A stretch of DNA of 64,000 nucleotides from an uncultured Chloroflexia bacterium (GTDB lineage Bacteria; Chloroflexota; Limnocylindria; Limnocylindrales; CSP1-4), in NCBI GenBank assembly GCA_963797685.1, contig CAWCQK010000017.1, forward strand, positions 129,652-193,651. Reading direction: 5' to 3'. Under the pieces are notes generated by a model. That model saw only the letters and a program-made list of their open reading frames with translations, did no database searches and had not been told where the DNA came from. Both the position numbers and the translations under genes were made by a program. Below are positions 47,535 to 47,622 of the stretch, piece after piece; the stretch's first letter is position 1; every line of letters starts with the position of its first letter.

Positions 47535-47622
47535 GTGGCGAACTCGTGGCGAAGCGGTGGCGAAGCCGTGACTCGGTCGTGATGGAGACGGTGACGATGC
47601 GGTGACGAGGGCCCGGTGACGG
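47535..47622 (+). repeat. eight tandem GTGRCG-type heptamers at about 11-nt period, opposite orientation to the other two arrays
   Basis: GTGGC/GTGAC cores start at 47535, 47546, 47557, 47568, 47579, 47591, 47602 and 47616 (spacings 11, 11, 11, 11, 12, 11, 14). They lie in the 159-nt gap between the permease stop and the SARP start. Confidence 0.75.

Follow-up and report, generated by a model that had tools for sequence, protein, structure and literature searches.

Between the gene for an FtsX-type ABC permease and that of a small SARP regulator, the window (the whole stretch of 64,000 nucleotides that was analysed) carries an array of eight 11-bp units, array 1, which is real and kept by selection. 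Judging from its motif, its phase and its setting, it is very probably a SARP-binding array. The array points away from the SARP gene, and we propose tentatively, with somewhat less than even confidence, that it serves as a SARP landing platform acting on the promoter of that same gene, i.e., in autoregulation.

Structure and orientation of the array

The genes of the cluster lie on the minus strand in the order ABC ATPase, FtsX permease, array 1, SARP, array 2, a 121-aa Cys-rich protein, a HopA1-like protein, a kinase-LanC protein, array 3, and a 472-aa cysteine-ladder protein (Table 1). The plus-strand letters of array 1 are GTGGCGAACTC GTGGCGAAGCG GTGGCGAAGCC GTGACTCGGTC GTGATGGAGACG GTGACGATGCG GTGACGAGGGCCCG GTGACGG, and the unit starts match exactly the eight copies with spacings of 11, 11, 11, 11, 12, 11, and 14 that had been read in the initial annotation. 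The GTGGCG/GTGACG cores described there hold for most of the units but not for unit 4 (GTGACT) and unit 5 (GTGATG).

Table 1. Features of the SARP cluster and related arrays (window coordinates unless a contig is named)
Feature	Position	Strand	Remarks
ABC ATPase gene	50057-50887	minus	
FtsX-type ABC permease gene	47631..50060	minus	Pfam FtsX; stop codon 9 nt past array 1; lineage-specific neighbour, outside the conserved module
Array 1	47535..47622	plus	eight 11-bp units, core GTGRYG; steps of 12 and 14 bp at two places; unit starts 47535, 47546, 47557, 47568, 47579, 47591, 47602, 47616
Conserved block GGCCATCCGAAGGTCC	47516..47531	minus	between array 1 and SARP promoter; homology to all seven orthologues starts here
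Palindrome GGTCC-CTG-GGACC, then ATTTTCT	47501..47520	minus	flagged by terminator scan; arms and T-run conserved, 1-nt indel in relatives
-35-like hexamer TGGCTT, predicted SARP gene promoter	47493..47498	minus	17 bp from -10; kept in orthologues
-10-like hexamer TACTGT, predicted SARP gene promoter	47470..47475	minus	unchanged across the seven orthologues
Small SARP gene, 270 aa	46632..47444	minus	probable OmpR-type DNA-binding domain, and BTAD; probable reader of the arrays
Array 2, before 121-aa Cys-rich gene	46537..46609	minus	four strong, one weak, and two medium units, in phase
Candidate -10 of array 2, CACGAT	46511-46516	minus	conserved
Array 3, before 472-aa cysteine-ladder gene	42469..42508	minus	four units
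-10 of array 3, TACCGT	42455-42460	minus	conserved in four relatives
Fourth array, same motif (locus L063)	G000 contig C1:383575-383614	minus	4-5 units; outside the window

Chance is excluded as the source of array 1, zero matches being expected. The pattern used for this comparison, four units of GTGRY at 11-nt steps, has three matches in the window, all of them within array 1 or array 2, and none in 100 shuffles. The 3.3-Mb assembly contains three chains of at least four units in all, array 1 being the longest, and three order-3 Markov genomes yielded at most one 4-chain.

Since GTGAC is nearly its own reverse complement, the orientation was tested by means of a weight matrix built only from the other arrays, i.e., trained on arrays 2 and 3 and the contig C1 array with array 1 left out, and applied at a cut-off of at least 5 bits. 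At array 1 the matrix marks eight plus-strand sites of 5-11 bits, exactly at the eight phased positions, and one site on the minus strand, with a background rate of 0.5% per position. This backs the plus-strand reading, according to which array 1 is oriented opposite to the arrays before the two Cys-rich genes; its orientation is also opposite to that of the SARP gene. A repeat search paired array 1 with positions 46572-46610 of array 2 as an imperfect inverted repeat, 923 nt apart. Inversion of the SARP gene by recombination between the two arrays was considered and set aside, the arms being just 74% complementary with short identical runs and the inverted gene being found in no relative.

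The build of array 1 is that of a SARP box (direct repeats at 11 or 22 bp, each with a core of ~7-8 bp and 3-4 uncontacted bases), with tandem direct repeats 11 bp apart on one helix face, a conserved core followed by less conserved positions, the SARP gene 91 nt away, and a motif common to the target promoters. What sets it apart from a SARP box, on both strands, is the promoter geometry, which would have the 3' repeat 8 bp upstream of the -10 and the repeats over, or in place of, the -35; on the minus strand, the unit nearest TACTGT is 60 nt off and in reverse orientation. Its earlier assignment as a SARP-type site is supported by the motif, the 11-nt phase, and the core/spacer pattern, all of which are common to the arrays before target genes, and, the motif being the same as before the target genes of the cluster, array 1 is almost certainly to be taken as a predicted SARP operator.

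The 270-aa SARP is the sole member of its SARP subfamily found in the assembly. Its BTAD is recognized by Pfam PF03704 (E=1.2e-18, 68.3 bits vs a cut-off of 22.1), and residues 35-256 align with the AfsR SARP domain 8hvr, including the DNA-binding part (E=3.3e-9); Trans_reg_C, the Pfam OmpR-type domain, scores 13.6 bits, below its cut-off of 26.2. The start of the gene had been placed at GTG 47471 and is here moved to ATG 47444, which has a ribosome-binding site, GGGGGA, at 47449-47454, because the GTG lies inside the conserved -10-like TACTGT and frame-breaking indels separate the two starts in relatives. With the start at 47444, the gap to the permease gene becomes 186 nt, 88 nt of it array, instead of a mostly filled gap of 159 nt. 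An N-terminal extension of the SARP across the array was rejected as well: the frame, open from the permease stop, offers no start codon and in relatives contains indels of 1 nt and 15 nt.

Arrays of the same motif in other loci

Arrays 2 and 3 carry the motif of array 1 on the minus strand and are aimed at the genes that they precede. Array 3 conforms to the SARP geometry described in PMC10936776: TACCGT comes 8 bp after its 3' unit, GTGAGTG. The fourth array, on contig C1, sits between convergent genes (aldehyde dehydrogenase and MIP channel) and is conserved in two 99% relatives; past it lies a conserved stretch of ~150 nt without a conserved reading frame, ending in a 13-bp hairpin, CCGGCGCCCGGCC-TACCCTC-GGCCGGGCGCCGG. 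This stretch is a candidate for a SARP-driven small RNA.

Within the same bacterial family, the paralogous loci L004, L022, L033, and L027 and the genome G099 share the GTGAC(G) motif and the 11-nt phase in arrays of 3-11 units. Eight arrays in paralogous loci could be assessed, and each of them is followed, 4-213 nt downstream, by the start of a gene in the same orientation, as are arrays 2 and 3. The earlier remark that eight copies are unusually many holds against the Streptomyces sites of two to three repeats (PMC10972967) but not within the lineage, where 8-11 units are common: there are eight phased positions in array 2, nine in its G099 counterpart, nine in the L033 array (read by eye), and eleven in the L027 array. 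The last of these, the longest array seen, consists of eleven phased TGACG units following the paralogous SARP gene (genome G076, SARP-oriented 2225-2346), and its last unit stands 9 bp before CACCGT and a downstream gene, which was counted as agreeing with the promoter geometry. The G099 array, placed before CAGCAT, agrees with it too.

Three further findings in paralogous loci are recorded here. Downstream of its SARP gene, locus L023 (G279) has an array with three units of this motif, preceding a gene whose product begins MPIAPTYPGVYIEELPSG and, to the eye, resembles a phage-tail-sheath (contractile injection system) protein. Locus L025 (G181) has a forward three-unit GTGACG array at 1250-1278, ~100-210 nt upstream of its own SARP gene, which may be the canonical self-activating arrangement in a paralogue. 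The SARP homologues of L018 (G202) and L019 (G115), from another genus and with 61-62% identity, contain in-frame stops (two TGA, one TAG) and lack GTGRCG arrays in their vicinity; possibly these copies are in decay.

Conservation in orthologous clusters

Seven orthologous clusters were compared, namely that of the window and six obtained from genome and metagenome searches, with SARP identities of 86-99%. The window, L048, and L049 (SARP 99%) have the ABC-FtsX genes past the array and eight units; L038 (93%) also has eight units, next to an unrelated flank without a clear gene. Locus L050, which belongs to G009 (88%), has 6-7 units and a divergent RHH-PIN (vapBC-like) pair, L052 (86%) has 3-4 units, two of them identical, and an unrelated co-directional gene ~410 nt away, and L051 (86%) has another RHH-PIN pair and no units. 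The position of the array is kept in five to six of the seven, and unit-by-unit orthology by position holds for the window, L048, L049, L038, and L050, i.e., down to 88% SARP identity.

The conservation is concentrated in the cores: pairwise identity averages 0.85-0.95 over unit positions 1-6 vs 0.51-0.62 over positions 7-9, and between L038 and L050, with the window left out, 30 of 35 core positions match vs 16 of 28 spacer positions. Since cores that are conserved while spacers diverge are the signature of selection on a protein-binding core, the cores of array 1 are, by this comparison, under purifying selection as protein-binding cores. The pattern fits the AfsR structure, in which the protein contacts in every 11-bp repeat extend over the first 8 bp and leave out the last 3 (PMC10936776).

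The initial annotation had also raised the possibility of a slippage-generated repeat varying between isolates. Variation between related clusters is there, with copy numbers from 8 to 0 and a fresh duplication, the two identical adjacent units of L052; the purifying selection on the cores, however, argues that array 1 is not a neutral slippage repeat. A neutral tandem repeat of this origin, or a site of some other DNA-binding protein unrelated to SARP, is accordingly very improbable. What it would explain, apart from the copy number and the L052 duplication, is the period-11 repeat called by TRF on units 1-3 (84% over 3.3 copies). Only these three units resemble one another, the units overall are not near-identical, the three closest relatives share the same eight units, and the motif is identical to that of arrays adjoining SARP genes in many loci. 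The near-identical units, the copy number differing between close relatives, and the lack of positional conservation by which a VNTR is recognized are not what array 1 displays.

The surroundings of the array are much less constant. The permease adjoins it only in the window, L048, and L049 and is not there in L038, L050, L051, and L052, and blastn among the flanks of the seven loci found the array in common and nothing past it, which also led to the rejection of a conserved plus-strand gene or small RNA past array 1. At the opposite end, comparison of the window with L059-L062 shows homology ending at ~40981-40989, right past the stop codon of the 472-aa gene, even in 99% relatives. With nothing shared past unit 8 and homology ending after the cysteine-ladder gene, array 1 stands at the left module edge and is, on these alignments, the outermost left element of a conserved ~6.6-kb module reaching from array 1 to the cysteine-ladder gene.

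This module behaves as a unit in variable surroundings. The vapBC-like pairs (RHH antitoxin and PIN toxin) at its left edge, L011 6867-7519 (G009) and L051 ~2551-3900, are two different pairs, which suggests a hotspot of insertion or rearrangement.

Where the array is shortened (L050, L052), the units far from the SARP gene are gone and those near it are kept. Locus L051, without the array, keeps the SARP promoter and the cluster, so that the array is dispensable there; its array 2 is the shortest, with two strong units vs four. A search for more distant orthologous clusters in 400 genomes of the class found just that of G099 (SARP 39%, HopA1-like 54-58% identity), in which the divergent partner gene is absent and the upstream gene is co-directional. 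It has a single inverted GTGGCG unit upstream of the SARP orthologue, beside a similar CGAAGGTNC...TTTCT (CGAAGGT...TTTCT) block.

The paralogous loci L004, L022, and L033 have the array inverted upstream of the SARP gene and facing a divergent gene, Cys-rich or Trp-rich, at a distance of 68-106 nt, whereas the window's clade has no divergent gene at array 1 and a variable flank. Array 1 may therefore descend from such a divergent promoter. It has been considered whether it is by now a relic, i.e., the ancestral divergent promoter of a Cys-rich gene that was lost or replaced, leaving an array without a role. The block CCGAAGGACC...GGGACCAT, which L004 shares beside its array, the break of synteny at the outer edge of the array, and the loss of the array in L051 speak for this possibility in addition to the inverted paralogous arrays. 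It is nonetheless quite unlikely, as the cores are kept while the spacers diverged across lineages already differing in flank, which points to continuing use, and as the distant orthologue G099 has an inverted unit without a divergent gene.

The divergent targets of L004 (1-1183) and L033 (1-1176), both minus in SARP orientation, encode proteins of ~390 aa with Cys and Trp clusters (WWFWWLRWC, CCGWWPWWWW, RTCCCEPP); tblastn of these against the window's Cys-rich proteins gave no match.

The predicted SARP gene promoter

The order of GGCCATCCGAAGGTCC, palindrome with ATTTTCT, TGGCTT, 17 bp, TACTGT, and ribosome-binding site is kept in all seven loci, including the array-less L051, in which homology to the other loci begins only at GGCCATCCGAAGGTCC. 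The TACTGT of this promoter resembles TACCGT at array 3 and the afsS -10 CACTGT (PMC10936776). A consensus sigma-70 promoter scan of 46400-47900 on both strands gave no match, so the promoter assignments rest on conservation and analogy. The palindrome with ATTTTCT, directly before the -35 position, is probably an A/T-rich UP-like element and less probably a weak terminator-like hairpin, and the SARP promoter with this putative element appears to be self-sufficient.

Several other readings of this region were rejected. As a terminator of the ABC operon, it would have just a 5-bp hairpin and a T-run; being conserved also without a co-directional gene upstream, the hairpin is read as part of the SARP promoter region. 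A forward SARP box in the promoter fails on GTGGCTT at the -35, which is 2 nt off register and whose GTG is not kept in L050, L051, and L052. A known or structured RNA leader was ruled out, there being no Rfam match at E up to 1 and a fold z-score of -0.46, no better than shuffles. The palindrome arms at 47508-47520 are conserved in orthologues with a spacer of 3-4 nt, and a second regulator of the SARP gene, binding as a dimer, could have its operator in this palindrome.

Array 1 lies ~72 to 159 bp upstream of the predicted transcription start of the SARP promoter. The centre of unit 1 is ~42.5 bp, i.e., four helical turns, from the -35-like hexamer (manual count), and in six loci the units stay in register with the SARP promoter block to within 1 nt.

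Models of array function

In the canonical SARP mode, the protein stands in for recognition of the -35, with the 3' repeat at 8 bp from the -10 (PMC10936776); this is impossible for array 1 at its distance of ~72-159 bp and facing away. Autoregulation by the SARP from an inverted site, one of the possibilities raised initially, is the one that fits the comparative data best, as the SARP gene is the sole neighbour of array 1 kept across lineages and the register to its promoter is conserved; it is for this reason that SARP at array 1 is proposed to feed back on SARP expression. The loss of distal units with retention of near ones, together with the inverted unit of G099, likewise associates the array with the SARP promoter and not with a plus-strand partner.

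In the model proposed here, up to eight SARP protomers would load abreast along the same DNA face at intervals of 11 bp, and the SARP bound there would feed back on SARP expression from upstream, its BTAD domains recruiting the flexible RNA polymerase alpha C-terminal domain in the style of a class-I upstream site. Contacts of DNA-bound BTAD domains with the alpha C-terminal domain are seen in the AfsR complex (PMC10936776). Positive feedback via array 1 is favoured over negative in this proposal, and nucleation of an extended SARP oligomer at the array is plausible. It has to be noted that the following observations count against autoregulation: L051 has the SARP promoter and the cluster without the array, the arrays of the subfamily aim at the gene that they precede, so that array 1 should fire into the plus strand, SARP activation as known is fixed in orientation and overlaps the -35 (PMC10936776), and the SARP promoter is apparently self-sufficient.

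The second of these observations leads to a different model, in which array 1 is a SARP-dependent plus-strand promoter, whose RNA would here be antisense to the FtsX permease gene at its 3' end and in G009 would head for the vapBC-like pair. It is possible, if on balance unlikely. Besides the aim of the eight assessable paralogous arrays and of arrays 2 and 3 at what they activate, the highest-scoring units of array 1 (9.6-11.4 bits) are those distal to the SARP gene, where RNA polymerase would sit; the first gene ahead of the array in G009 starts 82 nt past the last unit, within the usual range; and the contig C1 array, too, is aimed at a convergent gene, for a membrane protein, from its 3' side and is followed by the ~150 conserved noncoding nucleotides. 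Unit 8 is also followed by a near-miss of a -10, which in the window is CACTCG after a gap of 9 bp and in L048 and L049 is TACTCG after one of 6 bp. These hexamers, however, lack the final T, differ in spacing (9 vs 6 bp) between 99% relatives, consist merely of the last permease codons and the stop, and have no comparable counterpart in G009 and L038; a -10-like hexamer with the final T, 8-9 bp past unit 8, was looked for and not found. Downstream in the direction of the array there is no conservation between lineages, two lineages (L050, L052) have lost the distal units, on which the promoter geometry would depend, and differing products are hard to square with core conservation across unrelated flanks. 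The suggestion of an antisense transcript over the permease 3' end is weakened accordingly, with the permease as neighbour only in the window, L048, and L049 and unrelated flanks in the four other clusters: as neither a plus-strand product nor a -10 is conserved, the antisense reading is lineage-specific at best.

A third model makes the array a titration sink, with eight non-activating sites capturing new SARP so that the target arrays fill only above a threshold, resulting in switch-like induction. The principle underlying it is that of decoy sites. It would account for eight good sites in non-canonical geometry whose cores are under selection, directly beside the gene making the SARP protein, for an array size that differs between lineages, and for the joint occurrence in L051 of a missing array 1 and the shortest array 2. 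The co-variation of arrays 1 and 2 rests on one lineage, however, the conserved register to the SARP promoter would be superfluous, and the model is pure inference; we grant it little likelihood.

More elaborate readings were considered too. SARP filaments on the mutually inverted arrays 1 and 2, ~920 bp apart, may run parallel and bridge when the DNA folds back, so that the SARP gene would be looped out and its expression coupled to the occupancy of the target promoter, or the eight-unit array may be a dosage threshold device; both are speculative and improbable. If either were true, the length of the arrays (8-11 units) would be the hallmark of Chloroflexota SARPs acting as filaments, a mode undescribed for the Streptomyces proteins.

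Implications

SARP activators are, to our knowledge, known almost only from actinomycetes. The Chloroflexota SARP subfamily described here uses arrays of 4-11 units, one of which, with eight units, is kept under selection in the "wrong" orientation upstream of the SARP's own gene. If array 1 does feed back on SARP expression, SARPs can act at a distance and reversed, beyond the single activation geometry that has been solved. Array 1 is, moreover, the left border of a transferable module of 6.6 kb, which encodes an undescribed Cys-rich peptide and kinase-LanC system, and the natural series of 8, 6-7, 3-4, and 0 units provides ready variants for studying how the number of sites sets the switch once the silent cluster is expressed in another host.

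Comparison with known systems

Published SARP sites consist of two or three heptamers, usually overlapping the -35 (PMC10972967, PMC10936776). The closest structural counterpart of array 1 is the afs box of the afsS promoter, bound by the SARP domain of AfsR from Streptomyces coelicolor (PDB 8hvr, PMC10936776), to which the window SARP aligns. Both are made of 11-bp direct repeats with the first 7-8 bp conserved and the last 3-4 free, and in the afs box each repeat is read by one OmpR-type winged-helix protomer (PMC10936776). They differ in host (Chloroflexota vs Actinomycetota), in core (GTGRYG vs CGTT(T/C)ATCG), and in placement: the afs box has two repeats centred at -29.5, over the -35 and toward the gene, whereas array 1 has eight at ~-72 to -159, facing away from the sole conserved gene.

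Heptamer repeats off the -35, as in array 1, are found in the operator of the SARP-LAL regulator PimR at pimM in Streptomyces natalensis (PMC3367932; PMC10972967), so that non-canonical positions are already known for the SARP family. Three repeats make up the PimR site and are directed at the target gene of another regulator, while array 1 is inverted, has eight units, and lies before the SARP's own gene. SARPs acting on their own promoters, e.g., CcaR, are named in PMC10972967 and PMC8788787. Like the window SARP, those of the CcaR type are cluster-situated and have sites upstream of their own gene. The sites reported for self-acting SARPs such as CcaR comprise, as far as we know, few heptamers in the usual forward geometry.

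Inverted upstream sites are familiar from the marbox of MarA, SoxS, and Rob in E. coli, which is "forward" when over the -35 and "backward" when upstream, where it works via the alpha C-terminal domain. The backward upstream marbox is a functional analogy for the inverted upstream array 1 (SoxS and Rob complexes are cited in PMC10936776); the AraC/XylS family is unrelated to SARP, and its monomeric single sites do not form arrays. Among the nearest relatives, the inverted arrays of L004, L022, and L033 face a divergent target that the array 1 clade does not have. Array 1 is thus best described, on its predicted reading, as a SARP operator that differs from the known ones in being long, inverted, placed at a module edge, and variable in copy number.
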